DNA from: Alphaproteobacteria bacterium
GTDB taxonomy: Bacteria; Pseudomonadota; Alphaproteobacteria; MPNO01; UBA2964
Direction: 5' to 3'
NCBI GenBank assembly: GCA_049602055.1
Contig: JBMYRG010000019.1
Coordinates: forward strand, 1,076-65,075
DNA: 64,000 nt
The notes beneath the pieces were generated by a model. It did no database searches. It had not been told where the DNA came from and saw only the letters and a list, made by a program, of their open reading frames with translations. How positions within the stretch are numbered: the first letter of the stretch is position 1; each line of letters opens with the position of its first letter. Below, in pieces: positions 8,350 through 63,594 of this stretch. The position numbers and the translations under genes are program-made.

Positions 8350-8402
8350 AAGACTGTATGTGTGTTGGAGGACATTTCGTGTTGCTTGACGATGAACTAT
8401 AA

Positions 8403-8420
8403 TTGTTTGTACACATACAA
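8403..8420. promoter_or_regulatory. Putative NicR-like operator upstream of the Pcd-like UbiD
   Basis: TTGTTTGTACACATACAA; 16/18 identical to the box upstream of hnr (TTGTATGTACACAAACAA); overlaps TATAAT at 8398-8403. Confidence 0.75.
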
Positions 8421-8459
8421 ATATAGTTTTGGTGATTTAGCGCCACAGGAGGAGACATT

Positions 8460-10025
8460 ATGGCAGACCGGTTAGCTGTAAAGCTGGAAGAAAAAGGGGC
8501 AAATGGCATGACGCGCGAAGAAGCGCTGGTCGATTTGCGCACCACGCTCGATTGGCTTGGCGATGATGTTCAATATATTGATGGCGAGGTCGATCCGCTG
8601 GTCGAGATGTGCACCATCACAAAGGCGTTTGATAATTCCAAAGTGATCGTTGCCAATAACATCAAGGGCTATCCCGGCGTCCGGATGATCTCCAATCTGT
8701 ATTCGCGCAAGGAACGGGTAAACCGGTTCCATGGCGTTGAAGACTTCCGCGATATCAAGCATCAGCTGCTCAACCAGGTGAATAACCCAATCCCGCCGCG
8801 GATCGTCGATGATGCGCCGGTTCAGGAAGAAGTGCTGATTCCGGGCAAGGATTTTGATCATATCCACGATATCATTCCCGTGGCGACGCATACGTTTGAT
8901 GATGGCGGCCAGATTTTTGGCGCCGGGTCACATCTGTTTATGGGAGAGCCCTGGGTACCGGGTGGCGGCAGCCAGATTTCGATGTATCGCATGTCTTTCC
9001 GCGAAGGGCAGAAATATGCGTCGATCAACATGGTGCCAGGCGGTGCTGGTGATGTGATCTGCTCGCATCACCCAGGCAAGAAAGTTCCCTGTACCGTCAA
9101 TATCTGTCCACCTGTAGGACCCGAACTGGTGTCGGTTTCAACAATGAACCCGGTGATATTCCCCGGCCAGACCGACAAGCTCGGCTTTGCCGGTGCCATT
9201 CAAGGCTATCCGGTTGACGTTGTAAAAGCGCGCACCGTCGACGCCTATACCATCGCCAATGCCGAATGGTCACTTGAGGGCTATGTGCTTGAAGGCGAAC
9301 GGGTCTGGGAAACCGAAGAGGCTGAACGGATGGGCAAGCAGGGTGTTGCCTTGCTGCATCCGGAATGGGCGCGCTCGATGGGTCACGCCTATCGTACACC
9401 GCGCGCATTCCAGCTCACCGCCGTGACACGCCGTAAAAAGAACCCGATTGTCTACACACCGCATTTTGGCGCGTTCTGGTATGAAGCCCCGTTCATGTGC
9501 GCCAGCGTTTATGAGTTGTGCGAACGCATGGCGCCGGGCTTTGTAAAAGATGTTGCGAGCTGGCTTGGTCTCACTTTGTGGGGTGGGCTGGTTATTCAGG
9601 TCAAGAAGCGCCGCCGTTCTGATGAAGGTATGCAGCGCAATCTGCTGACCGCCATCATGGGGCTCTATCGTGGTATGCGGCTGGTGGTCGTGGTCGATGA
9701 GGATATTGATCCATGGCAGCCCGAAGATGTCATGTGGGCGATCCAGTCCCGCGCCTCGGCCCAGAAGGACTATATCGTCTACAATGAATATGGCCGTGGA
9801 CAGGCTTTCCAGCCATCAGAGCTCAAGATCGGTAATATTTCGGTCTCGGATGGCGGTATGGGTATCGATGCAACCGCGCCGCTAGGTGAGCAGGTTTATG
9901 AACGGTCAAAATACCCCGTCGATCAGATGGATTTCTCCAAATGGCTCAGCGAGGATGAAATCGCCGAGCTCAAAAATATGCAGGATCCATACTTCCGCTG
10001 GCTCGGCGAAACCGGTCACGGTTGA
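8460..10025 (+). CDS. UbiD-family decarboxylase, phthaloyl-CoA decarboxylase (Pcd/PhtDa)-like clade
   Basis: HPEWARSMGHAY replaces the canonical EGPFGE; AGAIQG.PV..VK.RT.DAYT, WGG.VIQVKKR, QRN.L.A, GRGQ.F.P.E and GGMGIDAT match recalled Pcd signatures; AGGAGGAG RBS. Confidence 0.8.
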   Translation: MADRLAVKLEEKGANGMTREEALVDLRTTLDWLGDDVQYIDGEVDPLVEMCTITKAFDNSKVIVANNIKGYPGVRMISNLYSRKERVNRFHGVEDFRDIKHQLLNQVNNPIPPRIVDDAPVQEEVLIPGKDFDHIHDIIPVATHTFDDGGQIFGAGSHLFMGEPWVPGGGSQISMYRMSFREGQKYASINMVPGGAGDVICSHHPGKKVPCTVNICPPVGPELVSVSTMNPVIFPGQTDKLGFAGAIQGYPVDVVKARTVDAYTIANAEWSLEGYVLEGERVWETEEAERMGKQGVALLHPEWARSMGHAYRTPRAFQLTAVTRRKKNPIVYTPHFGAFWYEAPFMCASVYELCERMAPGFVKDVASWLGLTLWGGLVIQVKKRRRSDEGMQRNLLTAIMGLYRGMRLVVVVDEDIDPWQPEDVMWAIQSRASAQKDYIVYNEYGRGQAFQPSELKIGNISVSDGGMGIDATAPLGEQVYERSKYPVDQMDFSKWLSEDEIAELKNMQDPYFRWLGETGHG

Positions 10026-49326: not shown

Positions 49327-49405
49327 CACATCACCAGGCTGTTCCTTCACCTGGCTCCAAAAGGGGCAAGGGACGGAGGCAGGTTGTTTACAGAACGAAA
49401 CGATT

Positions 49406-50635
49406 ATGACTAAACCGCTATCCCATGTTCGTGTGCTCGATATGAGCCGTATTCTCGCTGGTCCGTGGGCAGCGCAAACGCTTGCGGATCTCGGCGCTGA
49501 AGTGATCAAGATTGAGCGTCCGGGTACCGGCGATGACACCCGCACCTGGGGGCCTCCCTTCATTAAAGACAAAGACGGGAATGAAACCCAGGAATCGGCG
49601 TATTTCCTGTCGACCAATCGTGGCAAGAAATCAGTGGCGCTGGATATCTCCAAACCGGAAGGTCAGGAGGTTCTCAAAAAACTCGCTGCCAAATCCGATA
49701 TTCTGATTGAGAATTACAAAGTTGGCGGGTTGGCCGCCTATGGGCTTGGTTATGAAGACCTCAAGAAAATCAATCCCGGGCTGATCTATTGTTCGATTAC
49801 CGGGTTTGGTCAGACAGGGCCTTTCAGTACACGCGCCGGCTATGACTTCCTTATTCAGGCAATGGGCGGGCTGATGAGCGTTACTGGCGAGCCGGATGGC
49901 AAGCCGGGTGCCGGGCCGCAAAAGGTCGGGGTGGCTCTGACGGATATTCTGACCGGGCTCTACACCAATATTGCGGCGCTCGGCGCTCTGGCGCAGCGTG
50001 AAAAGACGGGTGAGGGATGTCACGTCGATATGGCCCTGCTTGATGTTACAACAGCGACCATGGCTAATCAGGCGCTCAATTTTCTGGTGACCGGCAATGC
50101 GCCAACCCGTATGGGCAATGCGCATCCCAATATTGTGCCATACGAGGCCTTTGAAGCGTCGGATATGTATTTGATTGTTGCGGTTGGCAATGACGGCCAG
50201 TTTGCCCGCTACGTCGAGGCCGCCGGTCAGCCCGAATTGGCGACCGATGAACGGTTTGCGACCAACGCGGCACGGGTCGAAAATCGCGATGTTCTGATTC
50301 CGATCATCAAGGACTTCATGAAGCAGAAGACTGGGCAGGAATGGATCGACGCGCTGGAAAAAGTCGGGGTGCCCTGCGGTCCGTTGAATAATATGGAACA
50401 GGTCTTCGCACATCCGCAAGTTCAGGCACGCGGCATGCAGATGGAACTCGATCATCCGCTTGCGGGGTCTGTGCCGCAGGTCGCCAGCCCGATCAAATAT
50501 ACCGGCGAAGAGCTGGAATATCAGGGCGCGCCGCCGACATTGGGACAGCATTCAGATTATGTGTTGAGTGATGTGCTGGATATGTCGGCAGATGAGATCG
50601 CAACGTTACGTGATGCGGGGGTGTTGGGGCGTTAA
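49406..50635 (+). CDS. CaiB/BaiF class III CoA-transferase (probably succinyl-CoA:glutarate)
   Basis: DMSRILAGP, GDDTRTWGPP, NRGKKS, RAGYD; adjacent to gcdH. Confidence 0.9.
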   Translation: MTKPLSHVRVLDMSRILAGPWAAQTLADLGAEVIKIERPGTGDDTRTWGPPFIKDKDGNETQESAYFLSTNRGKKSVALDISKPEGQEVLKKLAAKSDILIENYKVGGLAAYGLGYEDLKKINPGLIYCSITGFGQTGPFSTRAGYDFLIQAMGGLMSVTGEPDGKPGAGPQKVGVALTDILTGLYTNIAALGALAQREKTGEGCHVDMALLDVTTATMANQALNFLVTGNAPTRMGNAHPNIVPYEAFEASDMYLIVAVGNDGQFARYVEAAGQPELATDERFATNAARVENRDVLIPIIKDFMKQKTGQEWIDALEKVGVPCGPLNNMEQVFAHPQVQARGMQMELDHPLAGSVPQVASPIKYTGEELEYQGAPPTLGQHSDYVLSDVLDMSADEIATLRDAGVLGR

Positions 50636-52233: not shown

Positions 52234-53286
52234 ATGTTTTTGCGTAACGCATGGTATGTCGCTGCTTTTATCGGCGAAGTTGGCCGTGAGCCGCTGGCCC
52301 GAACTCTGCTCAATGACAAGGTCGTGCTGTTTCGAACCCAGGACGGTAGTCCCGTCGCGTTGGAGGACCGCTGTTGTCACCGGGCGCTGCCGCTTTCGAT
52401 GGGGCAGTGCGTTGGCGATAATTTGCAATGTGGATATCACGGGCTGCAGTTTGATCGAATCGGCCAATGCGTTGAGGTGCCGGGCCAGCCCAATATTCCG
52501 CCTGATGCTTCAGTACGGTCTTATCCGTTGATAGAGCGATGGAACTGGATCTGGATATGGATGGGTGATCCGGCAAAGGCCGATGAGACCCTGATCCCTG
52601 ACTGGTTCTGGGCAGATCATCCCGACTGGGCCTGTATTCAGGGTTGTGGAGGCACACCTCTTTATACCAAATGCAATTTTGAATTAATTACGGACAATTT
52701 GCAGGATGTCTCGCACCTGACCTTTATTCATGCGAGTTCTATCGGTAGCTCCGCAGTTTGTGAGTATCCGCCAAAAACCACGAGATCAGAACGCGAAATT
52801 ACCGCAGATCGCTGGATTCCGGACAGACCGCCTGCGCCGTTTTGGAAGAAGGCTGGCGGTTTTGAGGGCAATGTTGATCGCTGGCTGATCAGCACGACAA
52901 TTTTACCGTCCTGCACGGTGAATGACGCGGGCAGCGTCGAAGTAGGTACTGACGCGCGACAGGGGCATCGCGAGCACGGTGCCGAGATGCGGGTTCTCAA
53001 TGCACCAACGCCGGAGACCGAAACCACGACTCATTATTTTTACCAGCATGCCCGGGGATTTGAGGTTGATAACCCTGAGTGGGATGAGATTTACCGAACC
53101 CAGTTCACAGAAGTATTTCTTGAAGACAAGGTCGTCCTGGAAGCGCAGCAGGAAAGCATGAGCCGCACCCCTGATGCCGCGATGATCGATATCAATGACG
53201 ATGCGCCGAGTATCGCGATCCGCAAGGCGTTGCGGGCGGCGATCGCGGCAGAGCAGGCTGAAAACCGGCAAGCGGTAGCCGGATAA
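52234..53286 (+). CDS. VanA-like Rieske oxygenase/demethylase alpha subunit
   Basis: FLRNAWY, CCHR..CGYHG, DNLQDVSHLTFIH, EDKVVLEAQQ. Confidence 0.9.
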   Translation: MFLRNAWYVAAFIGEVGREPLARTLLNDKVVLFRTQDGSPVALEDRCCHRALPLSMGQCVGDNLQCGYHGLQFDRIGQCVEVPGQPNIPPDASVRSYPLIERWNWIWIWMGDPAKADETLIPDWFWADHPDWACIQGCGGTPLYTKCNFELITDNLQDVSHLTFIHASSIGSSAVCEYPPKTTRSEREITADRWIPDRPPAPFWKKAGGFEGNVDRWLISTTILPSCTVNDAGSVEVGTDARQGHREHGAEMRVLNAPTPETETTTHYFYQHARGFEVDNPEWDEIYRTQFTEVFLEDKVVLEAQQESMSRTPDAAMIDINDDAPSIAIRKALRAAIAAEQAENRQAVAG

Positions 53287-53424
53287 AATCCCTACATTTT
53301 TTGCCTTTTCGGCTATCGCGAGGCAGAAAATTCGGCGTATACTTTGAACCATTCCGGGAAATGGGCATCTGACACAAGACCCAAAATTTCTGTAATCCGG
53401 CTGGTTCGACAACAGGGGAGTCCC

Positions 53425-54708
53425 ATGAAGATATCTCGAATGACGAGCGCGCTTGCCGTGATGGCTGGTGTTTTAGGCATGACGGCAACGATGTCGGCGG
53501 CAGATGCCAACGAAGTTGAAAAGTTTTATAAGGGTAAAACGCTGACAATCTGGAGTGGTCTTTCTCCAGGCGGGTCTTACACGGCCTATGCGTTGGCCCT
53601 CAAGGATTACATGCCCAAATATATTCCCGGTAATCCGACCATTATCGTGGGTAGCCGGACAGGCGGTTCAGGCCGTGTCCTCGCTAACTGGATGTATAAT
53701 GTCGGTCCCCGGGACGGATCAATGTTCGGTCTGATCCATGAACGGATGGGGTTGGAACCGCATGTCTATCCCAAAGGCACTCGGTTTGATGGCCGTGAGC
53801 TGACCTGGATTGGTAGCATGGCGAAACAAAAGAGTGTCTGCTACACGTGGCACACGTCCAAGGTGAAAACCTTTGAAGATGCCCAGAAGATGACCGCGAT
53901 TGTGGGTACCAGCTCGTCGACCGCGACGGGTTCGGTCATGCCGCGCATGTTAAATTCAATGGCTGGAACAAAATTCAAGATCATCCGTGGTTACGATCCG
54001 GCAGAAGTCTTTTTGGCGATGGAACGCGGTGAGCTTGATGGTCTTTGCGGTTATGGTTGGGGCAGCATGAAGACAGCGCGTCCTGACTTTATCCGGGACA
54101 AGAAGTTGAACCTGATCCTGCAGTTCTCCGACAAGAGTCATGCAGAGCTTGATGGCAAGGTACCGGTCATGATGGATTACATCACCAACCCGAGGGATCG
54201 GGCCATGCTCAAGCTTGTCTTTGGAACGCAGGAAATGGGTCGTCCGTTTGCAGGGCCGCCAGCCATGCCTAAAGCGCGTATCGCGGCACTGCGAAATGCA
54301 TTTAATATGGTGATGAAGGATCCGGAATTCCTGGCGGATGCCAAAAAGCGGCGTCTGGAAATTGATCCGATTACCGGTGAGACGATTCAGGCGCTTGTTA
54401 ACGAGCTCTATAAGACCCCAAAAGATATCGCAGCGCTGACGGCTGGATATCGCAAACCAGCTAAAGTTGGCGAGTCCAAGCGTAAGATCAACTGGAAAAA
54501 GGTCGATGTGACGCTGTCCAAGAAAAAGGGCCGCTATGTTTACTTCACGGTCGGTAGTGAGGCGCATCGCGCCAAGCTTCATGGCAAGCGCACCAAGGTG
54601 ACAATTGCAGGCAAGAAAGCCAAAACCAAAAATCTTAAGGCTGGTCTGAAATGTAATGTAACTTATCCTGGCCATCATGGTCTGGCGAAGGCGATTACCT
54701 GTCAGTAA
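53425..54708 (+). CDS. TctC/Bug binding protein with a basic C-terminal extension
   Basis: FYKGKT, PGGSY, ERGELDG, GRPFAGPP; extra ~80-aa Lys-rich domain. Confidence 0.85.
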   Translation: MKISRMTSALAVMAGVLGMTATMSAADANEVEKFYKGKTLTIWSGLSPGGSYTAYALALKDYMPKYIPGNPTIIVGSRTGGSGRVLANWMYNVGPRDGSMFGLIHERMGLEPHVYPKGTRFDGRELTWIGSMAKQKSVCYTWHTSKVKTFEDAQKMTAIVGTSSSTATGSVMPRMLNSMAGTKFKIIRGYDPAEVFLAMERGELDGLCGYGWGSMKTARPDFIRDKKLNLILQFSDKSHAELDGKVPVMMDYITNPRDRAMLKLVFGTQEMGRPFAGPPAMPKARIAALRNAFNMVMKDPEFLADAKKRRLEIDPITGETIQALVNELYKTPKDIAALTAGYRKPAKVGESKRKINWKKVDVTLSKKKGRYVYFTVGSEAHRAKLHGKRTKVTIAGKKAKTKNLKAGLKCNVTYPGHHGLAKAITCQ

Positions 54709-54732
54709 GGTAATCCATCTCGTTGAGATTTG

Positions 54733-54767
54733 CCCGCTTCCCCAATTGGGGGAGCGGGTTTTCTTTT
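54733..54767 (+). terminator. Rho-independent terminator
   Basis: CCCGCTTCCCC-AATT-GGGGGAGCGGG followed by TTTTCTTTT. Confidence 0.85.
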
Positions 54768-54793
54768 GTTTATGGCGCAGATTGGTCGGTTTC

Positions 54794-54856
54794 TTGACAC
54801 AAATCACCCAGCCCTAGATTATTCGTACACAAACAAGTTTTTGAGTACACTCATTA
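54794..54856 (+). promoter_or_regulatory. nicR promoter with tandem operator boxes (autoregulation)
   Basis: TTGACA-17-GATTAT; TTATTCGTACACAAACAA at 54819-54836 and TTTTGAGTACACTCATTA at 54839-54856. Confidence 0.7.
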
Positions 54857-54870
54857 GGGTTTTGCGGCGT

Positions 54871-55317
54871 ATGACAGCGAAAGATGGCTATATTCTGGAA
54901 CGCCAGGCGGGGCATTTACTGCGTCGCGCGCATCAGCGTCATTCGGCTATTTTTCAGGAAAATATCGGCGATGCACAGCTGACCCCGTTGCAATTCGCGG
55001 CGCTGATCAAGCTTCGCGATCTCACTGAGGTTTCCCAGAACCATCTCGGTCGCTTAACAGCAATGGATGCGGCGACGATGCAGGGCGTCATAAAACGTCT
55101 CGCCTCCCGTGGACTGATCGAGCGGCGGCCCGATCCAAATGACCGACGCCGTTTGATTCTGAGCTTGAGTATTGAAGGACGCGATCTTGTCGAAGCGCTG
55201 GTCAATAACGGCAGTAATATTACGGCGCAAACGCTTGAGCCGCTGACCGCAGCAGAACAGAAAACGTTTTTGGACTTGCTGACTAAGCTGGCGCAGCTAA
55301 ACGGTAATATTGAGTAG
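54871..55317 (+). CDS. nicR: MarR-family regulator, NicR-like
   Basis: QAGHLLRRAHQRHSAIFQ..QLTPLQF..SQ..TAMDAAT..DPNDRR matches recalled NicR/BpsR sequence; lies near hnr. Confidence 0.75.
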   Translation: MTAKDGYILERQAGHLLRRAHQRHSAIFQENIGDAQLTPLQFAALIKLRDLTEVSQNHLGRLTAMDAATMQGVIKRLASRGLIERRPDPNDRRRLILSLSIEGRDLVEALVNNGSNITAQTLEPLTAAEQKTFLDLLTKLAQLNGNIE

Positions 55318-55332
55318 AAACGTCTGGACGCT

Positions 55333-56658
55333 TTAACGCGTGGCGTTAAGGCCCTCGATCATCCCTTCAACGGTACTGAATTTTTTGCGCGGCGCTGGCT
55401 CGGGAGCGGCTTTTTCTTCCAGCTCCTTGATCACCAGCCAATCATCAAACGAGATAGCCTGGAGATTGCGTTCTTTGGTCAGTACGTCGAGCGCATCAGG
55501 GCCGGGCTTTGCCTCGCCGCCAAAGTCAGCGACCAGGAGGTCGGTGACGGCATAGGAATCCAGCCGGTTGGTACCGATCGTGCCAGTAGCCCCGCGTTTG
55601 ACCCAGCCGGCCGCATAAACACCCGGCGCGACGCGGCCTTCTTCATGCTCGACAATACCGCTGCGTTCATTAAAGGGAATACCTTCAATGGCTTCGGCAC
55701 GTGATCCGATGCAGGTTATGACCATTTCGCAGGGGATATCAAAAGTCTCGCCGGTGCCGACGCAACGGCCGCCTTCGACCTTGGTGCGTTCCATGCGAAT
55801 GGCTTCAACGCTGTCACCGCCAAGGATTTCAATTGGCGAGGCATAAAACTCAATATGGACCTTACGACGCTTCTCCCCGGCTTTCGCCTTGGAAAGGTCT
55901 TTGAGTGTATCGACAATACGGGCGCGCACTTTCTTTTCGCGGTCATCCATTTCTTCCGGCATTTCGTCCGGCAAAATAGAGCCATCGACGACAGTTGTCG
56001 CGGCCTCGAGGACACCCATCTCCTTGAGCTCGTTATTCGTACAGGCGGCTTCCAGAGGTCCCCGTCGCGCAAACATATATATGTCTTTGAGTGATGCCGC
56101 GTCGATATCGTCCATCGCGTAATCAGCAATATCGGTTGTAGCCATTTCAGCCGGTGTTCGCGACAGGACACGTGCAACGTCAATAGCGACATTGCCGATA
56201 CCAATTACGGCAGCGGTATTGATGTTGAGATCGGGGCCAAGGTCCTTAAAGTCGGGGTGGCAGTTATACCAGCCGACAAAAGCGTTTGAGCCATAGACGC
56301 CTTTCTTATCTTCGCCAGGGATGCCGAGTTTATTGTCATATGGGGCGCCATAGGCCAGCACCACGGCATCATAAATAGCGGTTAGTTCTTCGAGGCTGAC
56401 ATCACGCCCGAGCGATATATTCCCGACATAACGCACGTTCTCATTCTCGGTAATACTCTGGGCATATTTCTGGTCGACCCGCTTGGTCTTCTGATGGTCG
56501 GGGGCGACGCCACCTCTGATCAGTCCAAACGGAGATGGCAATCGGTCGATGATGTCGATACGGCACCCGGGTGCTTTCTCTAACAACGCCTGTGCGACAT
56601 ACATGCCGCCGGGACCGGAACCGACGATGGCGACACTGCGGTCACTGAACTCACTCAT
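55333..56658 (-). CDS. Ferredoxin-NADP+ reductase (adrenodoxin reductase/FprA type)
   Basis: GSGPGG, PFGLIRGGVAPDH, IGIGNVAIDVAR, RRGP, GWVKRGATG. Confidence 0.9.
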   Translation of the reverse strand: MSEFSDRSVAIVGSGPGGMYVAQALLEKAPGCRIDIIDRLPSPFGLIRGGVAPDHQKTKRVDQKYAQSITENENVRYVGNISLGRDVSLEELTAIYDAVVLAYGAPYDNKLGIPGEDKKGVYGSNAFVGWYNCHPDFKDLGPDLNINTAAVIGIGNVAIDVARVLSRTPAEMATTDIADYAMDDIDAASLKDIYMFARRGPLEAACTNNELKEMGVLEAATTVVDGSILPDEMPEEMDDREKKVRARIVDTLKDLSKAKAGEKRRKVHIEFYASPIEILGGDSVEAIRMERTKVEGGRCVGTGETFDIPCEMVITCIGSRAEAIEGIPFNERSGIVEHEEGRVAPGVYAAGWVKRGATGTIGTNRLDSYAVTDLLVADFGGEAKPGPDALDVLTKERNLQAISFDDWLVIKELEEKAAPEPAPRKKFSTVEGMIEGLNATR

Positions 56659-56755
56659 TCTTAAATCCGCGTTTTATTATTAAGCCCAAAACTGCGGGTG
56701 ATGATAGCCGAACCATGTGCTGAGGAAACCCCTGCCGGTACACTTTTCCACAACA

Positions 56756-56790
56756 AAAAGCCCCGGAAAAATGTATTTGCCGGGGCTTTT
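56756..56790. terminator. Stem-loop terminator downstream of korB
   Basis: AAAAGCCCCGG...CCGGGGCTTTT. Confidence 0.75.
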
Positions 56791-56810
56791 CGTAATATGA
56801 AATGAAAGAA

Positions 56811-57836
56811 TCAGACGACGGTCCAGGTCTTTCCTTTATGCATCAACTCGTTGATCGGAATTGCCGGTGATTTTTTAGTCACATCGGCGATCTGCTCGTA
56901 CACGGCTTCATCGTATGCTGGACCGGGGTCGCGGAAGATAACTCCCATGGCAACCGGGAAGTTTGGAGGCTGCATCCCAGCCAGCATAAGCGCCAGCGGG
57001 CGATTGGTTTCATCATGGATCAGAATGTCATCTTCAGTGACACCATTCTCCCCAATCGTAACGACCTCAAGTTCCATTTTACCGGGGGTCATGCGCAGGC
57101 CTTTTTCATTTTCCTTACCGAACAGCAGCGGTTTGCCATGCTCGCAAAGAATCTGACCATCAGCCGCGTTGGCCTTGTCGGTGAACGAGGAATATACGCC
57201 ATCGTTATAAACGATGCAGTTCTGCAGGATTTCAACAAACGAAGCACCCTTGTTTTCTTTTGCTTCCTGCAGCAGTCCGGGAAGGACTTTCTGGTTGGTG
57301 TCGACAGAGCGCGCAACAAACCGGGCATTACAGCCAAGCGCATAAACACAGGCGGAAACCGGAGAATCGACTGAACCTGCAGGGGTTGAGGGTGAGCGCG
57401 TACCGACTTTCGATGTCGGTGAATATTGACCCTTGGTCAGGCCGTAGATCTCGTTGTTAAACAGCAGGACCTGAACATCGATGTTGCGGCGCAGAACATG
57501 CAGTGTGTGATTGCCGCCGATACTCAGCATGTCGCCGTCACCACCGATGACCCAAACGTCGAGGTCAGGGTTTGCCAGCTTGACGCCGGTGGCAACAGCC
57601 GGGGCACGACCATGGATCGTGTGGAAACCGTATGTTGCCATGTAATAAGGGAAGCGGGCGGCGCAACCGATACCGGAAACGAAGACGGTGTTCTTCGGAT
57701 CGGCTCCCATATTTGAGAGGGCCTTTTGTACGGCCTTAACGATTGCATAGTCACCACAACCTGGGCACCAGCGTACTTCCTGATCGGAAGCATAATCGTT
57801 TGGCTTAAGAGCTTCTGGGGGGCTTTGAACGTTCAT
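56811..57836 (-). CDS. korB: 2-oxoacid:ferredoxin oxidoreductase beta subunit
   Basis: WCPGCGD, SGIGC, HGR, GDGD, NNEIYGLTKGQYSPT. Confidence 0.93.
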   Translation of the reverse strand: MNVQSPPEALKPNDYASDQEVRWCPGCGDYAIVKAVQKALSNMGADPKNTVFVSGIGCAARFPYYMATYGFHTIHGRAPAVATGVKLANPDLDVWVIGGDGDMLSIGGNHTLHVLRRNIDVQVLLFNNEIYGLTKGQYSPTSKVGTRSPSTPAGSVDSPVSACVYALGCNARFVARSVDTNQKVLPGLLQEAKENKGASFVEILQNCIVYNDGVYSSFTDKANAADGQILCEHGKPLLFGKENEKGLRMTPGKMELEVVTIGENGVTEDDILIHDETNRPLALMLAGMQPPNFPVAMGVIFRDPGPAYDEAVYEQIADVTKKSPAIPINELMHKGKTWTVV

Positions 57837-57839
57837 CGA

Positions 57840-59705
57840 TTAGTCCTCCAACCGGCTACGGATTTCTCGTTCCAGATCGGAAACCTTAAAAGGTTGACCA
57901 GTAATCTGGGCGAGAGATTCCGCCGGTACTAGATATTCAGAGCGGAGCAGCGTAACCAGCTGTCCGTTATTCATTTCGGGAACCAGGATTTTATCAAAAC
58001 CCTTCAACAAATCACCGAGGTTACGCGCCAGCGGCCAGATGTAACGGATATGGATGTGAGAAACATCCAGACCGTCTTCCTGACAACGACGGGTTGCCTG
58101 TTCAATAGCCCCGAACGTTGAACCCCAACCGACGACGACCATCTTGCCCGACGTGTTCCCTGACACGACTTCCTGCTCTGGAATATCATCGGCGATGCCG
58201 AGAATTTTCTGAGCCCGGACCTTGGTCATCTTGTGATGATTGTCGGAGTCATAAGAGATATTGCCTGAATCGTAGTCTTTCTCGATCCCGCCAATCCGGT
58301 GCTCCAGACCCGGTGTCCCGGGGATGGCCCAGTTGCGGCCTAATGTCTTCTCATCACGAAGATAGGGGTGGAAGCCTTCGGTCTCGCTGGCGAACTCAAC
58401 CGGGAATGGTTCGACATCATCGGTGTCAGGCAGTTTCCAGGGCTCCGCCGCGTTGGCGAGGAAGCCTTCATTGAGGAACATAACCGGGGTCATGTATTTG
58501 GTCGCCAGACGAACCGCTTCAATCGCGCAGTCATAACAGTCTGACGCAGTAGAGGCAGCAATGACCGGCATCGGTGTATCACCATTACGACCAAATACCG
58601 ATTGATACAGGTCTGACTGCTCGGTTTTGGTCGGCATACCCGTTGACGGTCCAGCGCGCTGGAAGTTTACAATGATCAGCGGTAATTCGGTTACAACAGC
58701 GAGGCCGAGCGCTTCTGACTTCAGCGCGACACCTGGACCGGAACTGGATGTGATTCCCAGCGATCCGGCATAAGACGCCCCGAGTGCTGAACAGATAGCG
58801 GATATTTCGTCTTCTGCCTGGAAGGTAACAACCCCATACGCTTTCAGATTACTCAGCGAATGCAGTAGCGGTGAAGCTGGTGTAATCGGGTAGGAGCCAA
58901 AGAAAATATCCAGACCGGCTTTCTGAGCGCCGGTGAGGAGACCCCAACAGGTTGTTTCAACACCGGTGACAGCGCGGTAGATGCCGGGCTCCACTTTGGC
59001 TTTGGGAACAACATAGGTACTGATTTCACTTGGCAGCTCAGCAGTTTCGCCAAAGGCGTGTCCGGCATTGAGCGCTGCAATATTGGCTTCTGCGATGTGC
59101 GGTAATTTACCGAAACGCTGGTTCAACCAATCAATTGTTGGCTGACGATCACGATCATACATCCAGCACATCAGACCCAACGTCCACAAATTCTTGGCGC
59201 GAAGTGCTTCTTTCTGGGTGACGTCGATGCCTTCAACGGCGGCCAGCGTCATTTTTGAGATATCAATCTCAATGACGCGGTAGCTGTCGAGCGAGTGATC
59301 TTCCAGAGGGCTTTCCTTGTAACCGGCTTTCTCGATATTACGCGCCGTAAAGGCACCGAGATTGAGGATCAGCGTACCGCCGGGGACAAGGTCCTTTAAA
59401 TGGACCTTAAGAGCCGCCGGGTTCATCGCGACCAGAACATCCGGGGCATCGCCCGGAGTTTTGATGACATGCGAGGCGAAGTTGATCTGGAAAGCTGAAA
59501 CCCCATAGGTCGTTCCGACCGGCGCGCGAATTTCAGCAGGAAAATCAGGGAACGTCGAAAGATCGTTGCCCATTAAGGCCGTTGACTGGGTGAACTGCGT
59601 TCCCGTCAGCTGCATTCCGTCGCCCGAATCACCCGCAAAGCGAATAACTACAGAGTCCAGAATTTCGCGGCCGCTCTCGTCGGTTTCTTTGAGTTGTGTA
59701 GCCAT
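57840..59705 (-). CDS. korA: 2-oxoacid:ferredoxin oxidoreductase alpha subunit
   Basis: RFAGDSGDG, YPITPAS, QAEDE, QRAGPSTGMPTKTEQSD. Confidence 0.93.
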   Translation of the reverse strand: MATQLKETDESGREILDSVVIRFAGDSGDGMQLTGTQFTQSTALMGNDLSTFPDFPAEIRAPVGTTYGVSAFQINFASHVIKTPGDAPDVLVAMNPAALKVHLKDLVPGGTLILNLGAFTARNIEKAGYKESPLEDHSLDSYRVIEIDISKMTLAAVEGIDVTQKEALRAKNLWTLGLMCWMYDRDRQPTIDWLNQRFGKLPHIAEANIAALNAGHAFGETAELPSEISTYVVPKAKVEPGIYRAVTGVETTCWGLLTGAQKAGLDIFFGSYPITPASPLLHSLSNLKAYGVVTFQAEDEISAICSALGASYAGSLGITSSSGPGVALKSEALGLAVVTELPLIIVNFQRAGPSTGMPTKTEQSDLYQSVFGRNGDTPMPVIAASTASDCYDCAIEAVRLATKYMTPVMFLNEGFLANAAEPWKLPDTDDVEPFPVEFASETEGFHPYLRDEKTLGRNWAIPGTPGLEHRIGGIEKDYDSGNISYDSDNHHKMTKVRAQKILGIADDIPEQEVVSGNTSGKMVVVGWGSTFGAIEQATRRCQEDGLDVSHIHIRYIWPLARNLGDLLKGFDKILVPEMNNGQLVTLLRSEYLVPAESLAQITGQPFKVSDLEREIRSRLED

Positions 59706-59794
59706 GGTTCCGATTAGGTTGATTGGCGAAAAAAAACGCCAGATTTCCGGTTCAGTTAAATGTCTTTAGTAGGACAAAAACGCTCAATAAATAA

Positions 59795-59854
59795 TTGTAT
59801 GTACACGAACAATTGATGTGGCAGCCAGTATCGGATAAGTCGGGAATTTGTCAA
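59795..59854 (-). promoter_or_regulatory. korAB promoter with NicR-like operator
   Basis: Minus-strand TTGACA (59854-59849)-16-GATACT; box TTGTATGTACACGAACAA at 59795-59812. Confidence 0.75.
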
Positions 59855-59935
59855 GAGGATCGAGCGTTATTTAAATCCCCAAAAGGCAAAAAAGAGTGAA
59901 CGAATTTCAGTGACCTTTTGATCATTTGATCTGTC

Positions 59936-59981
59936 TTGACAGAAAACGGTCGCTCGCGGATATTTGTATGTACACAAACAA
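59936..59981 (+). promoter_or_regulatory. hnr promoter with NicR-like operator
   Basis: TTGACA-17-GATATT overlapping box TTGTATGTACACAAACAA at 59964-59981. Confidence 0.8.
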
Positions 59982-60017
59982 TTATTCAGACGCGGCTAAT
60001 GAGCTGGGGAGAGCGCC

Positions 60018-61511
60018 ATGGCGGATGACACAAAAAGCAAGGATGATGGTCTGATCAGATGCGATGCGTGCCCGGTTCTTTGCCGAATTCGCGATGGAAA
60101 AACAGGGGCTTGCGACCGGTATGGTAATTTCGACGGCAAGCTGGTCCGCATGGATCCGGTCGTTGTTGCGCAAAAAGTCATGGACGAAAAAGGCGAGATG
60201 ATCCCGTTTGCCCAGGCCTCGGAAAGCTGGGATGGCTCACTCATTAGTCAGGCCCCGACTTTTTTGACCGGTATTGGCTCGACAACCACCTATCCGGATT
60301 ACAAGCCAGCACCATTTATCGTGTCCAGCGAGCAAGATGGCGTCGATATGGTCACCGTCGTCAGCGAAGGTGTATTCAGCTATTGCGGCGTGAAGGTGAA
60401 GATCGACACTGATGCCTATATTGGTCCCGAACCAGCTGCGATCCGGGTCAATGGCGAACAGGTCGGCCATGTGACGACGGCTGAATATGGTTCCCAGATG
60501 CTGGCGATTGGCGGTGTCCGGCATCTGACCGGGGGCAGCAAAAAAGAGGGCAACACCACCTGCAATACGATGATGCGGCTGTGTAATAAAGAAGCAGTCG
60601 AGATGACCATCGATGGCGGTGCCGAGATCGTTGTGCAGGCTGGCAAACCTCCCATCATCAACGGTATTCAGGAAGAACGCATGCGGGTTGGTTGCGGGTC
60701 GGCCACCGTCGGTATTTTTGCACCGCAATGGCACAACCATGTTGATGAGGTGATCGTGGTCGATGATCACATCACAGCAGTCTTAAGCGAGCATCAGGCA
60801 GGCAAGTTTATTGATATGCCGCCAGCAGGTATTAAAGTCCGCGGTCGTCGGTCAACGCCAGGCCGCTATTTTCAGGTTGCCGATCACGGCGCGGGCTGGG
60901 GTGGCACCGACATTATCGATCCGCTCGACATCATCGAAAAAATTGATCCTGAGGTGGCCTGGGCGGGGCTGCGTCTGTTGATGGTTTCAACAACGGGGCA
61001 GGATTCAGCTTATTTTGAGCTTGATGAGGAGCTGAAGCCAATCCAGAAAGACATGCCGGAAGCAGTGCAAATTGTTGTCGACAGAATTGGTGAAAACTGC
61101 GAGCCAGCGTTGTGTTCGGTTATGTTTATGGCTGGCGCGGGTGGCAGTTTACGCGCTGGCGTGACCGTCAATCCGGTATTGCTGACACGCTCCGTCAAGA
61201 AATCACACACCGAAGTCACGTGTGGTGGGGCTCCGGTTTTTGTCTGGCCGGGCGGTGGTATTACGCTTTTGGTTGATGTTAATGAAATGCCCGATAATTC
61301 ATTCGGCTATGTACCAACGCCGGCACTGGTAGCGCCAATCGAGTTTACGATACGCGCCGATGAATATGGTGCGCTTGGCGGTTATGTGGATCGCATCCGG
61401 TCTTTGGATGATGTCCTGGAGAAAGAAAAAATTCGATCTGTGCCCTGGCATGAGGATCACCCCTGGCCGCTGGACGTTGGCAAAGCGGTTGAAGAGGCCC
61501 AGGACAGCTGA
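60018..61511 (+). CDS. hnr: 6-hydroxynicotinate reductase
   Basis: CDACPVLC..GACDRY Fe-S motif, YPDYKPAPFI, MRVGCGSA, RSTPGRYF, GAGGSLRAG; UPF0280/DUF1185 context. Confidence 0.88.
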   Translation: MADDTKSKDDGLIRCDACPVLCRIRDGKTGACDRYGNFDGKLVRMDPVVVAQKVMDEKGEMIPFAQASESWDGSLISQAPTFLTGIGSTTTYPDYKPAPFIVSSEQDGVDMVTVVSEGVFSYCGVKVKIDTDAYIGPEPAAIRVNGEQVGHVTTAEYGSQMLAIGGVRHLTGGSKKEGNTTCNTMMRLCNKEAVEMTIDGGAEIVVQAGKPPIINGIQEERMRVGCGSATVGIFAPQWHNHVDEVIVVDDHITAVLSEHQAGKFIDMPPAGIKVRGRRSTPGRYFQVADHGAGWGGTDIIDPLDIIEKIDPEVAWAGLRLLMVSTTGQDSAYFELDEELKPIQKDMPEAVQIVVDRIGENCEPALCSVMFMAGAGGSLRAGVTVNPVLLTRSVKKSHTEVTCGGAPVFVWPGGGITLLVDVNEMPDNSFGYVPTPALVAPIEFTIRADEYGALGGYVDRIRSLDDVLEKEKIRSVPWHEDHPWPLDVGKAVEEAQDS

Positions 61512-62375
61512 ATGTTTGCCCCGGCGCAGATGGCATTGCTGCCAGATGGCCAAAGGCTGCACCTGAATCACGGCCCGATTGACCTGATTGTACAGGCTTT
61601 TGGCGATCCTGATGAGATCAAAAAGTCCTATAAACAGGCGATGTCCTGCTTCCCTGACATTTTGCCGACATTGGTCGATGAGCTTCAAAAATTGCGTCAG
61701 CTTTATAATGAAGACTGGCAGCCGGATGGACGGGTGGCGAGCCATATGCAGATCGCCTGTTCACGATTTTCTTCAGAATTCGTGACACCGATGGCAGCAG
61801 TCGCCGGAGCAGTGGCCGATGAAGTATTGCGGCAGCTGGTTCGTGGCAGGCAGCTTGAAAAGGCCTACGTGAATAACGGCGGGGATATTGCATTCCACCT
61901 GACCGAAGGGCAAAGCCTGACAGCGGGTCTGGTTGCGGATTATCATCTGCCGAATATTGATGGTGAATGTATTCTTACCTATGACATGCCGGTGCGCGGG
62001 ATTGCAACCAGTGGCTGGAAAGGGCGTAGTCTTTCGTTCGGTATAGCTGATTCTGTGTCAGTTTTGGCGAAAGACGCGGCCTCAGCGGATGTAGCGGCAA
62101 CGCTTATCGCCAATGATGTGAATGCAGATCATCGAGGGATAAAACGTGTGCCCGCGTCTGAACAGGACCTCGACAGTGATCTTGGTGAAAGGTTGGTTAC
62201 GGTAGAGGTCGGTGCGCTTGATCAGCAAACCGTCGATGCAGCATTAAACTCGGGCGAGAAGGCGGCCGTTACGGCGGAACAGGCTGGACACATCACAGCG
62301 GCGGTGCTGGTATTGCAGAATAATTTTAGAGTGGTTGGAGCGGCGCCTGCCGGGCTAATCGCAGAGGCGGCGTAA
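61512..62375 (+). CDS. UPF0280 (ApbE-like) protein
   Basis: HGPIDL, TPMAAVAGAVAD, NNGGDIA, ATSG..GRS.S.G.AD. Confidence 0.88.
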   Translation: MFAPAQMALLPDGQRLHLNHGPIDLIVQAFGDPDEIKKSYKQAMSCFPDILPTLVDELQKLRQLYNEDWQPDGRVASHMQIACSRFSSEFVTPMAAVAGAVADEVLRQLVRGRQLEKAYVNNGGDIAFHLTEGQSLTAGLVADYHLPNIDGECILTYDMPVRGIATSGWKGRSLSFGIADSVSVLAKDAASADVAATLIANDVNADHRGIKRVPASEQDLDSDLGERLVTVEVGALDQQTVDAALNSGEKAAVTAEQAGHITAAVLVLQNNFRVVGAAPAGLIAEAA

Positions 62376-62386
62376 AGGAAAAATCC

Positions 62387-63013
62387 ATGGGAAATATTTC
62401 AGACATAGAGACAGCCCCACAAGGCGACTTTGGCGAGCTAGTAAAAGTTCGCAAATTCGTTATCCATATTGAAGAGGTCCTGCATGAGTTCGGGCCGGCG
62501 GCGAACCCGCCACAGCTCAAGGGTTATATCGCGGCGGTTGCGGCTAACCCTTATGCCGGACGTTATGTCGAAGATCTGATGCCATTGATGGAAGCGTTGA
62601 AACCTCTCGGCACAGCGATGGCGCAAAGATTGATTGATGCGCTTGGTGCTGTGGACAAGATTGTCGCCTATGGCAAGTCAGCCATTGTTGGGGAGAATGG
62701 TGAGCTGGAACATGCTGCGTTGTGGCATGAACCCGGCGGCTATGGCATGCGGCAGCTAATCAAGCCGTCCAAGGCCATTGTCCCATCGACCAAAAAAGTA
62801 GCGGGCCCCGGGCGTCCGGTTGATGTGCCATTGGCGCATGTAAATGCGGCTTATGTTCGTAGCCATTTTGATTGCATCGAATGTTCAATTCCGGATGCGC
62901 CGCGCGCGGACGAGATTGTCTGGATCCAGTCAATGGCAACCGGTCCGCGGATTTATGACCGTGCCGGTGGATTAAAGGCTTCTGATATTCAGGGAGAGGA
63001 TGGACTTAAATGA
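62387..63013 (+). CDS. Amino acid synthesis family protein (DUF1185)
   Basis: NPYAGRYVEDL, YGKSAIVG..GELEH, YVRSHFD, PRADE. Confidence 0.88.
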   Translation: MGNISDIETAPQGDFGELVKVRKFVIHIEEVLHEFGPAANPPQLKGYIAAVAANPYAGRYVEDLMPLMEALKPLGTAMAQRLIDALGAVDKIVAYGKSAIVGENGELEHAALWHEPGGYGMRQLIKPSKAIVPSTKKVAGPGRPVDVPLAHVNAAYVRSHFDCIECSIPDAPRADEIVWIQSMATGPRIYDRAGGLKASDIQGEDGLK

Positions 63014-63594
63014 ACGCCAAGATCAGAAAAACCCAGGTAATTGTAGAAACAACCCATAGCGATATCGGTAAGCCGGTTGATCCGGCGACACGTAAGGCTT
63101 CGGCGCTCGCAGTGATCGAAAACCCGTACGCGGGCCGTTATGAAGAGGATTTGTCCGAGCTGATGGATATTGGCGCTGAACTCGGCGGCTATCTCGGCAA
63201 AATGTGTGTCGATGCGCTCGGGATTACACCTGAGCAGGCGGAAAGCTATGGCAAGGCCGCTATCGTTGGCGAGAACGGCGAGTGGGAACATGCTGCGGCT
63301 ATCCTGCATCCCAAGCTCGGCGCGCCTCTTCGCAAAGAAGTAGAAAAAGGGGCAGCGCTCGTGCCATCGGTTAAAAAGCTCGGCGGACAGGGCACCCGGA
63401 TTGACGTACCGCTCGGTCATAAAGATGCGGCCTATGTACGTAGTCACTTTGACGGAATGGAAGTCGGCATGGCTGATGCCCCGCGTGCCAATGAAATCCT
63501 GGTGGCGGTTTCGGTTACCGATTCTGGCCGACCGTTCCCGCGGGTTGGTGGATTGACCACTGATGAAGTGGTGGGCGAGGATGGTCTTCGCTAA
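63010..63594 (+). CDS. Amino acid synthesis family protein (DUF1185)
   Basis: NPYAGRYEEDL, YGKAAIVG..GEWEH, HKDAAYVRSHFD, GRPFPRVGGL. Confidence 0.88.
   Translation: MNAKIRKTQVIVETTHSDIGKPVDPATRKASALAVIENPYAGRYEEDLSELMDIGAELGGYLGKMCVDALGITPEQAESYGKAAIVGENGEWEHAAAILHPKLGAPLRKEVEKGAALVPSVKKLGGQGTRIDVPLGHKDAAYVRSHFDGMEVGMADAPRANEILVAVSVTDSGRPFPRVGGLTTDEVVGEDGLR

Follow-up and report, generated by a model that had tools for sequence, protein, structure and literature searches.

A conserved palindrome as the predicted operator of a BpsR-type MarR regulator at an alphaproteobacterial hnr and korAB locus

The MarR-family protein BpsR of Bordetella bronchiseptica (PDB 6pcp/6pco) represses nicotinate catabolic genes and is released by 6-hydroxynicotinate, and its DNA recognition sequence was called "unclear" (PMC6837509). 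NicR of Pseudomonas putida KT2440, the repressor of nicCDEFTP/nicXR, follows the same physiological logic, since it represses the lower nicotinate pathway and answers 6-hydroxynicotinate; the residues by which BpsR contacts this compound are not conserved in NicR (PMC6837509). For Azorhizobium caulinodans and the Bradyrhizobiaceae, a nicotinate cluster was described in which an Hnr homologue neighbours a nicotinate dehydrogenase as well as conserved proteins without assigned function, with a route that runs via THON and ends in glutarate. The accessible part of this source mentions neither a regulator nor an operator for the cluster (PMC3511419).

The window, i.e. the whole analyzed stretch of 64,000 nucleotides, encodes a regulator of the same MarR family (Table 1). 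In a gapless alignment of 136 residues its Y7, H15, R18 and H24 correspond to Y15, H23, R26 and H32 of BpsR, which are all four 6-hydroxynicotinate-contact residues. The nine aligned orthologues of the families f1 to f4 share these residues, with the exception of one that has F instead of Y7. A 46%-identical paralogue without the operator box described below has lost them. The best-scoring solved relative by sequence is PA1607 of Pseudomonas aeruginosa (PDB 2nnn, "probable transcriptional regulator"; E 7e-33), which has F and Y at the positions of H15 and H24. A preceding sequence-only reading had called the regulator NicR-like. This fits the MarR family and the lower-nicotinate-type label (JGI names an 89%-identical protein "lower aerobic nicotinate degradation pathway regulator", a KEGG-style NicR label), whereas the ligand pocket follows BpsR and not NicR of P. 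putida. Where the alignment covers the winged-helix domain, residues differ from those of BpsR, and the operator may therefore differ as well. The predicted targets are also different, namely a reductive hnr route, korAB, ETF and a UbiD enzyme instead of the aerobic nicC/nicE route of BpsR.

Compared to the Azorhizobium/Bradyrhizobiaceae cluster, as far as the accessible part of PMC3511419 describes it, hnr is here accompanied by a PRK04334 protein and two AA_synth proteins, and korAB with a GltD-like flavoprotein is divergently coupled to it. The flavoprotein gene is possibly part of the predicted korAB transcript. The acdh-coaT genes lie nearby, and the closest match of coaT is a succinate-glutarate CoA-transferase. 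The dehydrogenase-like genes are located on another contig in this genome. In the sister family f2, the box-controlled hnr operon also contains a molybdenum-hydroxylase pair, made up of an FAD subunit and a MoCo+2Fe-2S subunit. Downstream of the hnr operon, the contig of this study carries an unrelated 165-aa ORF.

The four intergenic 18-bp boxes reported from the sequence could be confirmed by a pattern scan of the window. The boxes at UbiD, korA and hnr match TTGTWYGTACACRWACAA with 0 mismatches and the box at marR with 1 mismatch (TTAT for TTGT). The total number of matches was 7 (4 boxes and 3 minus-strand matches), as three of the sites are matched a second time on the minus strand, with 2 mismatches. 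The chance expectation in 100 dinucleotide shuffles was 0.01, and none of the shuffles reached 7 matches. Box 1 lies between a cupin gene (7640-8167, minus strand) and the UbiD gene, box 2 between an ORF ending at 54708 and marR, and boxes 3 and 4 between the start of korA and hnr. The center reads GTACAC on the plus strand in all four boxes, whereas GTATAC is equally frequent in the relatives. The site is therefore a true palindrome, TTGTWYGTAYACRWACAA, and the central AC is not the fixed asymmetric spacer it had been taken for. With its A/T-rich flanks the comparative consensus is AW-TTGTWYGTAYACRWACAA-WT (half-sites TTGTWYGTA and YACRWACAA), in which T1, T4 and G7 are invariant across the relatives. 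A weaker copy proposed at 54839 has 3 mismatches to this consensus; it is unconserved even in the closest relatives and was therefore treated as a chance match.

Table 1. Predicted regulatory elements and genes of the box-bearing loci (window positions)
Feature	Position	Strand	Remarks
Operator box 1 (TTGTTTGTACACATACAA)	8403..8420	.	57 bp upstream of UbiD-like gene; abuts TATAAT (8398-8403); 30.0 bits
UbiD-family decarboxylase, predicted regulon member	8460..10025	+	Pfam UbiD/UbiD_C/UbiD_N; closest solved relative phthaloyl-CoA decarboxylase (PDB 8pmk, E 1.7e-82)
marR promoter TTGACA-17-GATTAT	54794..54822	+	-35 and -10 kept in same-family relatives; box overlaps -10
Operator box 2 (TTATTCGTACACAAACAA)	54819..54836	.	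overlaps marR -10; predicted autoregulatory site; 26.5 bits
MarR-family regulator, BpsR-type, 148 aa	54871..55317	+	Pfam MarR 46.2 bits (cut-off 24.6); PDB 6pcp E 6e-28
GltD-like NAD(P)-binding flavoprotein (Pyr_redox_2)	55333..56658	-	downstream of korB; syntenic in most relatives
korB, 2-oxoacid:acceptor oxidoreductase beta subunit	56811..57836	-	TIGR02177 245.1 bits, slightly below cut-off 261.9; TPP_enzyme_C
korA, 2-oxoacid:acceptor oxidoreductase alpha subunit	57840..59705	-	TIGR03710 618.4 bits (cut-off 482.75)
Operator box 3 (TTGTATGTACACGAACAA)	59795..59812	.	about +8 to +26 of predicted korA promoter; 28.5 bits; kept in relatives
korA promoter TTGACA-16-GATACT	59827..59854	-	TTGACA kept in all aligned relatives, including two without marR
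hnr promoter TTGACA-17-GATATT	59936..59964	+	kept in relatives, including two marR-less genomes
Operator box 4 (TTGTATGTACACAAACAA)	59964..59981	.	begins at last base of hnr -10; 30.0 bits
hnr, 6-hydroxynicotinate reductase homologue, 497 aa	60018..61511	+	proteins 72-95% identical so named by NCBI and JGI
Conserved protein, hnr operon	61512..62375	+	NCBIfam PRK04334.1-2, 345.9 bits (cut-off 290); syntenic behind hnr in relatives
AA_synth (PF06684) protein 1, hnr operon	62387..63013	+	Pfam; synteny in relatives
AA_synth (PF06684) protein 2, last hnr-operon gene	63010..63594	+	Pfam

For the whole genome (84 contigs, 3,530,914 bases), the plus-strand pattern gave 4 matches with at most 1 mismatch, all of them in the window, 5 with at most 2 and 7 with at most 3. 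In addition, a symmetrised scoring matrix was used that had been derived from 46 distinct sites in other genomes. The four boxes scored 26.5-30.0 bits, followed by a fifth site outside the window (C12:76663; 24.0 bits) upstream of etfB-etfA-hbd and then by sites of 15.8, 14.8 and 12.0 bits. Five sites reached at least 20 bits, compared to a mean of 0.03 (maximum 1) in 30 first-order Markov genomes, while below 18 bits the real counts were at chance level. The motif is thus not widespread in the genome. At most 1 mismatch was also allowed for the relatives, where 4 sites were found in the closed genome G004 (hnr, korA, marR and UbiD), 6 in G017, 3 in G029 and 5 in G031; the reversed pattern gave 0 matches in every genome scanned, these four included. 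Additional sites had been expected at nicotinate dehydrogenase, enamidase and transporter genes. The genome-wide matrix scan found no box at the nicotinate-dehydrogenase-like operon (C1:184254-188496) and no enamidase or transporter target in this genome, the etfB-etfA-hbd site being the sole extra one.

The three distal boxes overlap or follow TTGACA-16/17-GATWNT promoters, as had been described, and the box directly upstream of the MarR gene is placed on its -10 hexamer. In the alignments of the relatives, the conserved islands are the -35, the -10 and the box. The marR promoter is divided from the upstream gene by a terminator-like hairpin (54732-54759). For the UbiD box no good -35 could be found near the abutting TATAAT. 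A suggested control of the divergent cupin gene found no support: the distance from the box to the cupin start is 236 bp, and the sole promoter-like site for this gene (8282-8253) is more than 120 bp away from the box.

The palindrome is confined to few promoters, overlaps or adjoins their core elements, is conserved and is lost together with marR, and the ligand residues of the regulator are conserved. It is judged probable that the palindrome is the operator of the MarR protein of the window, acting as a BpsR-type repressor which is released by 6-hydroxynicotinate and targets marR, korAB, the hnr operon, the UbiD gene and ETF. The regulon itself is sound and of a conventional kind. One winged-helix domain of the MarR dimer would bind each 9-bp half-site. 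The site overlaps with the -10 and the predicted transcription start in the case of marR and hnr, and at korA it would lie just downstream of the start, so that the bound repressor is proposed to block RNA polymerase. The hydroxylation product of nicotinate, 6-hydroxynicotinate, would fit between the alpha-1 helices of the dimer, contacted, as in BpsR, by Y7, H15 and R18 from one chain and by H24 from its partner, and its binding would open the dimer and release the DNA. Derepression would then yield the 6-hydroxynicotinate reductase and the three conserved proteins of the hnr operon, the divergent korAB with the GltD-like flavoprotein as a putative source of low-potential electrons for the reductase, the phthaloyl-CoA-decarboxylase-like UbiD enzyme, the products of etfB-etfA-hbd, which may oxidise glutaryl-CoA from the pathway, and MarR itself (negative autoregulation). 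If true, a MarR repressor controls the genes for reductive breakdown of vitamin B3 (nicotinate) in uncultured marine bacteria.

The substrate is the part of this model that is most open to another reading. MarR could bind the box in response to an inducer other than 6-hydroxynicotinate, the substrate being another pyridine or aromatic carboxylate or a CoA ester turned over by the phthaloyl-CoA-decarboxylase-like enzyme, and "hnr" a ferredoxin-dependent reductase of different specificity. The name of hnr comes from database annotation, and the protein has no Pfam, NCBIfam or PDB match. The gene is present in 54 of the 61 relatives (69-95% identity among the matches listed, some of them fragments), a degree of conservation that is unusual in a niche catabolic gene. 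The UbiD member is nearest to a CoA-ester decarboxylase, the box targets in G031 include a VanA-type Rieske oxygenase gene, and the dehydrogenase-like operon of this genome lacks the box. Regulators without H15 (L226) carry the same box, and the box is therefore uninformative on the effector. This reading is nevertheless considered rather unlikely, because the four BpsR contact residues are kept in the orthologues adjoining hnr, the f2 molybdenum hydroxylase co-operonic with hnr has the architecture of a nicotinate dehydrogenase, and JGI gives a nicotinate-pathway name to an 89%-identical regulator. The gene set also agrees with the THON/glutarate route, as far as this is covered by the accessible part of PMC3511419.

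The assignment of the palindrome to the MarR repressor draws on adjacency, co-occurrence and co-loss, which were counted in related genomes and thus in non-independent samples. Within the same family, each of the 19 examined genomes that carry marR has one or more boxes of at least 18 bits in the hnr locus (hnr/korA), and 17 of 23 loci of the UbiD orthologue have such a box at about -57. In the three sister families f2-f4, 16 of 17 genomes have one before marR, and in f4 a box also precedes acdh-coaT. In two genomes of one genus, G020 (99% complete) and G023 (94%), pyrRedox-korBA/hnr and coaT-acdh are syntenic and marR is absent exactly between pyrRedox and coaT. Neither has a box at hnr/korA, UbiD or etfB, and a scan of the complete G020 sequence found none at all. 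The promoter elements TTGACA and GATAT are retained in both, and a decayed remnant of the UbiD box survives in G023. G017 and G022, which belong to the same genus, possess marR and boxes. Since G020 and G023 belong to one genus, the absence of marR may reflect a single loss event.

Alternatively, the palindrome could be bound by a different transcription factor whose gene lies elsewhere, with MarR as a bystander sharing locus and history. Some marR carriers are in line with this, as G045 has no box at up to 2 mismatches and 36 of 80 named marR-homologue loci have a box in the 250 bp before the gene, the 44 without it including all Sneathiella loci (58-61% identity). G021 has boxes and no detected marR, but its assembly is merely 72% complete. 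An unrelated factor appears improbable given that the box occupies the marR promoter itself in four families, that all boxes are gone in the two genomes missing only marR from an otherwise syntenic locus, and that a perfect 18-22-bp palindrome suits a MarR dimer. Furthermore, distant homologues of the same MarR clade have the same palindrome beside them: in alphaproteobacteria with regulators of 46-53% identity, similar palindromes lie between the regulator and xanthine-dehydrogenase-family FAD subunit genes at 3 of the 4 loci looked at. For the four most BpsR-like N-terminal loci of the phylum sample no 18-mer above 10 bits was found, and the operator is therefore not simply transferable to Bordetella BpsR. 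The predicted MarR control of marR itself, korAB, the hnr operon and UbiD is supported by genome comparison, the boxes being conserved, exclusive to these loci and lost together with marR.

It is hardly credible that the repeats are not a protein-binding DNA site but function as RNA hairpins, in the manner of attenuators or stability elements, or stem from a small element that is repeated or mobile. An inverted repeat longer than 18 bp lets two of the four boxes, taken with their flanks, fold to -7.8 and -6.4 kcal/mol (z -2.6), and the predicted transcript includes the korA box. But the other two boxes reach 0 kcal/mol (z +0.95) and -1.9 kcal/mol (z +0.23), three boxes are at or upstream of the predicted start, the sequence and not the pairing is conserved (T1, T4 and G7 invariant), no Rfam match was found in 54000-61000, and each genome has just five copies, which all lie at promoters of a single functional set.

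The deviation of box 2 from the pattern (G3>A) falls where the box overlaps the -10 hexamer. The korA gene was covered by contigs from RNA libraries of two studies.

The 18-bp palindrome TTGTWYGTACACRWACAA, the putative operator (box) of the MarR-family regulator encoded by marR, was located without mismatch at 8403 (UbiD-like gene), 59795 (korA) and 59964 (hnr, 6-hydroxynicotinate reductase homologue) and with one mismatch at 54819 (marR). As the sequence-only reading had stated, these sites are real occurrences of the pattern and all four are located between genes. The shuffle expectation for the pattern in the window was 0.01, and the observed count was reached by none of 100 shuffles. The window corresponds to C19:1076-65075 of the genome G000 (3.53 Mb, 84 contigs, 97% complete). 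Across this genome, a search of the plus strand with at most one mismatch returned only the four window boxes. A matrix derived from the four sites was applied to both strands and revealed a wide score gap beneath them.

Since circularity was to be avoided, a symmetrised matrix was built from 46 distinct sites, all of which were collected in genomes other than G000; because close relatives are among the source genomes, the matrix is only partly independent. The four boxes scored between 26.5 and 30.0 bits, whereas the rest of G000 reached at most 15.8 bits with the exception of a fifth site outside the window (C12:76663-76680; L183:6664-6681), which reads TCATATGTATACGAACAA and scored 24.0 bits. 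The number of sites with at least 20 bits was five, compared to a mean of 0.03 in 30 first-order Markov genomes. Below 18 bits, the site counts in G000 were at the chance level of the Markov genomes. Candidates in this range were dismissed as chance matches, namely C1:202252 (15.8 bits) and C1:196424, both inside long ORFs, C5:147482 (14.8 bits) inside an 823-aa xanthine-dehydrogenase-family ORF, and C34:29443 (12.0 bits). The weaker second copy proposed at 54839 was likewise rejected as chance: it deviates from the comparative consensus by three mismatches and is unconserved in the nearest relatives.

For the analysis of the motif shape, 132 distinct sites with their flanks were compared, resulting in the consensus AW-TTGTWYGTAYACRWACAA-WT. 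T1, T4 and G7 were invariant; in the flanks, only two positions on each side were biased, favouring A or T. The central AC is not a fixed asymmetric spacer: the centre reads GTATAC in the relatives as frequently as GTACAC, which makes the site a true palindrome. The putative operator is pinned to single bases by comparative genomics. The inverted repeat exceeds 18 bp at some sites (8395-8428 and 59956-59989 in the window, L253:1493-1526 in a relative) and is longest at the UbiD site, with up to 34 bp. RNA folding of the four boxes was inconsistent (−7.8, 0, −1.9 and −6.4 kcal/mol), and no family was matched in an Rfam search of 54000-61000.

Consensus scans recovered the promoter geometry claimed for three of the boxes. 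The marR promoter was found to be TTGACA-17-GATTAT with the box over the −10 hexamer. The TTAT of this site coincides with the overlap on GATTAT and is conserved in that form among relatives. The palindrome at 54819-54836 thus overlaps marR's own promoter, is conserved in relatives and represents a putative autoregulatory operator. For hnr, the promoter is TTGACA-17-GATATT and the last base of the −10 hexamer is the start of the box. The korA promoter on the opposite strand is TTGACA-16-GATACT, with the box about 8-26 bases past the expected start. The UbiD box adjoins a TATAAT; a good −35 was not found before the UbiD-like gene in the consensus scan. Control of the cupin gene (7640-8167), which had been considered possible, finds no support in the geometry. 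Phase-locked looping between the korA and hnr boxes was discarded, as their spacings among relatives (139, 157, 168-170, 185, 189, 204 and 209 bp) keep no single helical phase.

Features of the regulator locus, the UbiD-like gene and a related locus of a sister family (positions in the window unless a locus is named)
Feature	Position	Strand	Properties
UbiD-family enzyme	8460-10025	+	best solved relative phthaloyl-CoA decarboxylase (PDB 8pmk, E 1.7e-82)
MarR-family regulator (marR)	54871-55317	+	148 aa; PF01047 46.2 bits (cut-off 24.6), PF12802 44.6 bits (cut-off 27)
GltD-like NAD(P) flavoprotein (pyrRedox)	55333-56658	-	domain and family matches
korB, 2-oxoacid:acceptor oxidoreductase	56811-57836	-	beta subunit; TIGR02177 245.1 bits, just under the cut-off of 261.9; TPP_enzyme_C domain
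korA, 2-oxoacid:acceptor oxidoreductase	57840-59705	-	alpha subunit; TIGR03710 618.4 bits (cut-off 482.75)
hnr	60018-61511	+	named 6-hydroxynicotinate reductase after NCBI and JGI annotation of 72-95% identical proteins
PRK04334-type protein	61512-62375	+	function unknown; NCBIfam match
AA_synth proteins (two)	62387-63013, 63010-63594	+	PF06684
Molybdenum-hydroxylase pair, genome G029 (f2)	L049:7242-11047	hnr strand	347-aa FAD subunit; 921-aa 2Fe-2S+MoCo subunit

The hnr product was matched by no entry in Pfam, NCBIfam or PDB. For another alphaproteobacterial Hnr homologue, 42% identity to the E. barkeri enzyme is described (PMC3511419). A few kb 5′ of marR, an acyl-CoA dehydrogenase and a family-III CoA-transferase are encoded (48103-50635), the latter being nearest to succinate-glutarate CoA-transferase (514 bits, under the curated cut-off of 750). 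In the window this pair has no box; boxes occur before the corresponding pair in sister family f4 (L057:540, L062:294, L064:6243, L065:5756). Directly 5′ of marR there is a 454-aa ORF (53344-54708) without Pfam or NCBIfam match, which is conserved at 86-94% in two close relatives and at 36% in two others; a strong hairpin of terminator type lies behind it (54732-54759). G000 also contains two more UbiD paralogues with 38-40% identity to the enzyme downstream of the box.

The regulator yielded 30 MarR-family matches in the PDB at E≤1e-5. By sequence, its solved relatives include PA1607 (2nnn, E 7e-33) and BpsR, the MarR repressor of Bordetella bronchiseptica (6pcp, E 6e-28), to which it could be aligned without gaps. 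The residues of BpsR in contact with 6-hydroxynicotinate (6HNA) are Tyr15, His23, Arg26 and His32, a tetrad described as strictly conserved among BpsR homologues and as not conserved in NicR, the P. putida counterpart (PMC6837509). All four are identical in the window regulator (Y7, H15, R18 and H24); in PA1607, two of the four are replaced by F and Y. The tetrad is kept in nine orthologues from four families, except for one with F in place of Y7, and is not kept in a 46%-identical paralogue.

Orthologues of the locus were analyzed in 61 related genomes. An hnr orthologue was identified in 54 of them, which suggests that uncultured marine alphaproteobacteria of an abundant group regularly use nicotinate-type compounds; a marR orthologue (E≤1e-25) was found in 46. 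In f1, the family to which G000 belongs, the hnr locus was examined in 19 genomes with marR; each has at least one box of at least 18 bits at this locus, most have two, and the distances are as in the window. The UbiD orthologues of f1 are preceded by a box at about 57 bp in 17 of 23 loci. In the sister families f2-f4, 16 of 17 genomes have a box at 50-115 bp before marR, and boxes also occur beside korA.

Whole-genome scans with at most one mismatch resulted in four sites in the closed genome G004, which are exactly those of hnr, korA, marR and UbiD, and in six, three and five sites in G017, G029 and G031, respectively. The reversed-pattern control gave no match in any of the scanned relatives. 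Two one-mismatch boxes, G017:C15:54245 (L264) and G029:C1:3495425 (L258), have no obvious pathway link; a glutaredoxin-like ORF (G017) and a rhodanese-domain protein were seen near one of the two, and the neighbours of the G029 box have no Pfam match. Furthermore, G017 carries tandem boxes 21 bp apart before hnr (L044:5254-5292) besides the korA-side box. The korA-hnr spacer of G016 (L038, about 6400-6560) contains a run of N, so its box count may be incomplete.

Among 80 named loci retrieved with the regulator alignment (marine Rhodospirillaceae and Alphaproteobacteria MAGs, Defluviicoccus, Sneathiella and others), 36 carry a box in the 250 bp preceding the regulator gene. At up to two mismatches, no box was found there in Sneathiella or in other loci with 58-64% identity. 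A phylum sample of 401 genomes, 37 of them with a homologue at E≤1e-22, contained four regulators with 46-53% identity that have similar palindromes beside them (L218, L226, L228, L242); in three of the four, a xanthine-dehydrogenase-family FAD subunit gene is a neighbour. Some of these regulators lack H15, and the DNA specificity therefore appears to be older than the ligand pocket. The four most BpsR-like sequences found in the sample (L234, L239, L240, L246) have no 18-mer above 10 bits and only GTGTAC-type cores.

Two relatives lack the regulator gene. In G020 (99% complete; L047, C2:362000-378000) and G023 (94%; L048, C12:279000-294000), pyrRedox, korBA, hnr, the CoA-transferase and the acyl-CoA dehydrogenase are syntenic, and marR is absent exactly between pyrRedox and the CoA-transferase gene. 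No box was detected at hnr/korA, UbiD or etfB in either genome, nor anywhere in the whole genome of G020. The alignment of the korA-hnr spacer revealed that both genomes keep the TTGACA and GATAT of both promoters, with decayed box positions, and at the UbiD position of G023 a three-mismatch remnant is left. Their congeners G017 and G022 possess marR and boxes. Of all the evidence, the joint loss of boxes and marR argues most strongly that the box would be read by the MarR protein. The co-loss may go back to a single evolutionary event. Both genomes provide a ready natural control.

The fifth site of G000 is located 55 bp upstream of etfB, in an operon of etfB, etfA and a 3-hydroxyacyl-CoA dehydrogenase gene (hbd). 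A box at the same place was found in 9 of 24 f1 loci; those of G017 and G021 match the consensus perfectly. The expectation that a whole-genome matrix scan would return further sites at dehydrogenase, enamidase and transporter genes was not borne out in G000: the only extra site is the one at etfB-etfA-hbd, a dehydrogenase-like operon on contig C1 is without a box, and enamidase or transporter targets were not found.

In f2, two additional genes on the strand of hnr stand between it and korA; they encode the FAD subunit and the fused 2Fe-2S/MoCo subunit of a molybdenum hydroxylase, which would place a nicotinate-dehydrogenase-like enzyme within the box-controlled operon. The pair is directly 5′ of hnr, so that a genomic association of hnr with nicotinate-dehydrogenase-like genes is present in this family. 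The first scan of eight f2 hnr loci had returned no boxes, because in this family the korA-adjacent box and hnr are about 4 kb apart, with dehydrogenase-like genes in between. The 65%-identical pair of G000 (C1:184254-187936) belongs to the box-free operon on contig C1, where a gene for a PCu(A)C copper chaperone comes next. With the 921-aa subunit as query, 50 matches were obtained in G000, corresponding to about 30 large-subunit genes of the xanthine-dehydrogenase/CoxL family, which is unusually many for a 3.5-Mb genome.

Computation establishes the motif with its exclusiveness and conservation, its disappearance together with marR, its overlap with promoters and the conserved ligand residues. 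From these results, we infer how the regulator binds and represses, which effector it senses and what the enzymes do, as follows. A dimer of the BpsR-type MarR protein on the palindrome would block transcription from the promoters of marR, hnr and korA and probably also of the UbiD-like gene and etfBA; 6HNA at the dimer interface would release the repressor. 6-hydroxynicotinate reductase (Hnr, EC 1.3.7.1) is a ferredoxin-dependent enzyme. KorAB and the GltD-like flavoprotein would deliver low-potential electrons for the ferredoxin-dependent ring reduction, and ETF together with the hbd product would serve the oxidation of glutaryl-CoA. For alphaproteobacteria, a route via THON and glutarate is described (PMC3511419).

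The finding as a whole is correct and well supported, and its mechanism is conventional. The combination of a MarR repressor, a palindromic operator, 6HNA as inducer and nicotinate catabolism is of a known kind. However, the 6HNA-sensing MarR repressors of Pseudomonas and Bordetella belong to the oxidative route, whereas the same sensor type in the window appears to be wired to the reductive Hnr/THON/glutarate route and not to the oxidative nicC/nicX route, which would be new. Also new are the putative operator sequence for the clade of the regulator and the predicted regulon membership of korAB, ETF and the phthaloyl-CoA-decarboxylase-like UbiD enzyme. The precise DNA recognition sequence of BpsR is called unclear in PMC6837509, and the literature searched defines no operator for BpsR or an Hnr-linked MarR regulator.

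A more far-reaching reading is rather unlikely: in an undescribed regulon, widespread in marine Rhodospirillales-like alphaproteobacteria, a sensor of the BpsR class would tie the reductive degradation of nicotinate or similar pyridine carboxylates to a dedicated ferredoxin-reducing module of KorAB and the GltD-like protein. Further N-heterocyclic acids would enter through the prFMN enzyme resembling phthaloyl-CoA decarboxylase and, in some lineages, through an oxygenase of the VanA type, and the palindrome would be the first DNA recognition sequence of the BpsR clade. If true, an oxygen-exposed bacterium could run ferredoxin-dependent ring reduction. The regulon gives testable functional links for hard-to-assign genes: korAB is a candidate source of electrons for Hnr, pathway enzymes may be encoded by the PRK04334 and AA_synth genes, and the UbiD enzyme and ETF are candidate members.

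Contigs from four marine RNA-library runs (two studies) cover korB-korA, with ends at 59781, 59797 and 59797, and one run yielded a contig within hnr (59994-60257). These are assembled contigs and not reads, without strand, depth or comparison to DNA runs and silent on regulation, and give a weak hint that korB-korA and hnr are expressed with transcript ends near the predicted starts. They do not cover marR or the intergenic stretch, which carries no weight either way.

In G031, a perfect box is located directly 5′ of a VanA-type Rieske oxygenase gene (L253; G031:C11:1108425). A 38%-identical oxygenase is encoded in the window (52234-53286) two genes 5′ of marR, and in G005 it is directly 5′ of marR. 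Through this oxygenase, the regulon may be connected to pyridine carboxylates that are methylated or substituted.
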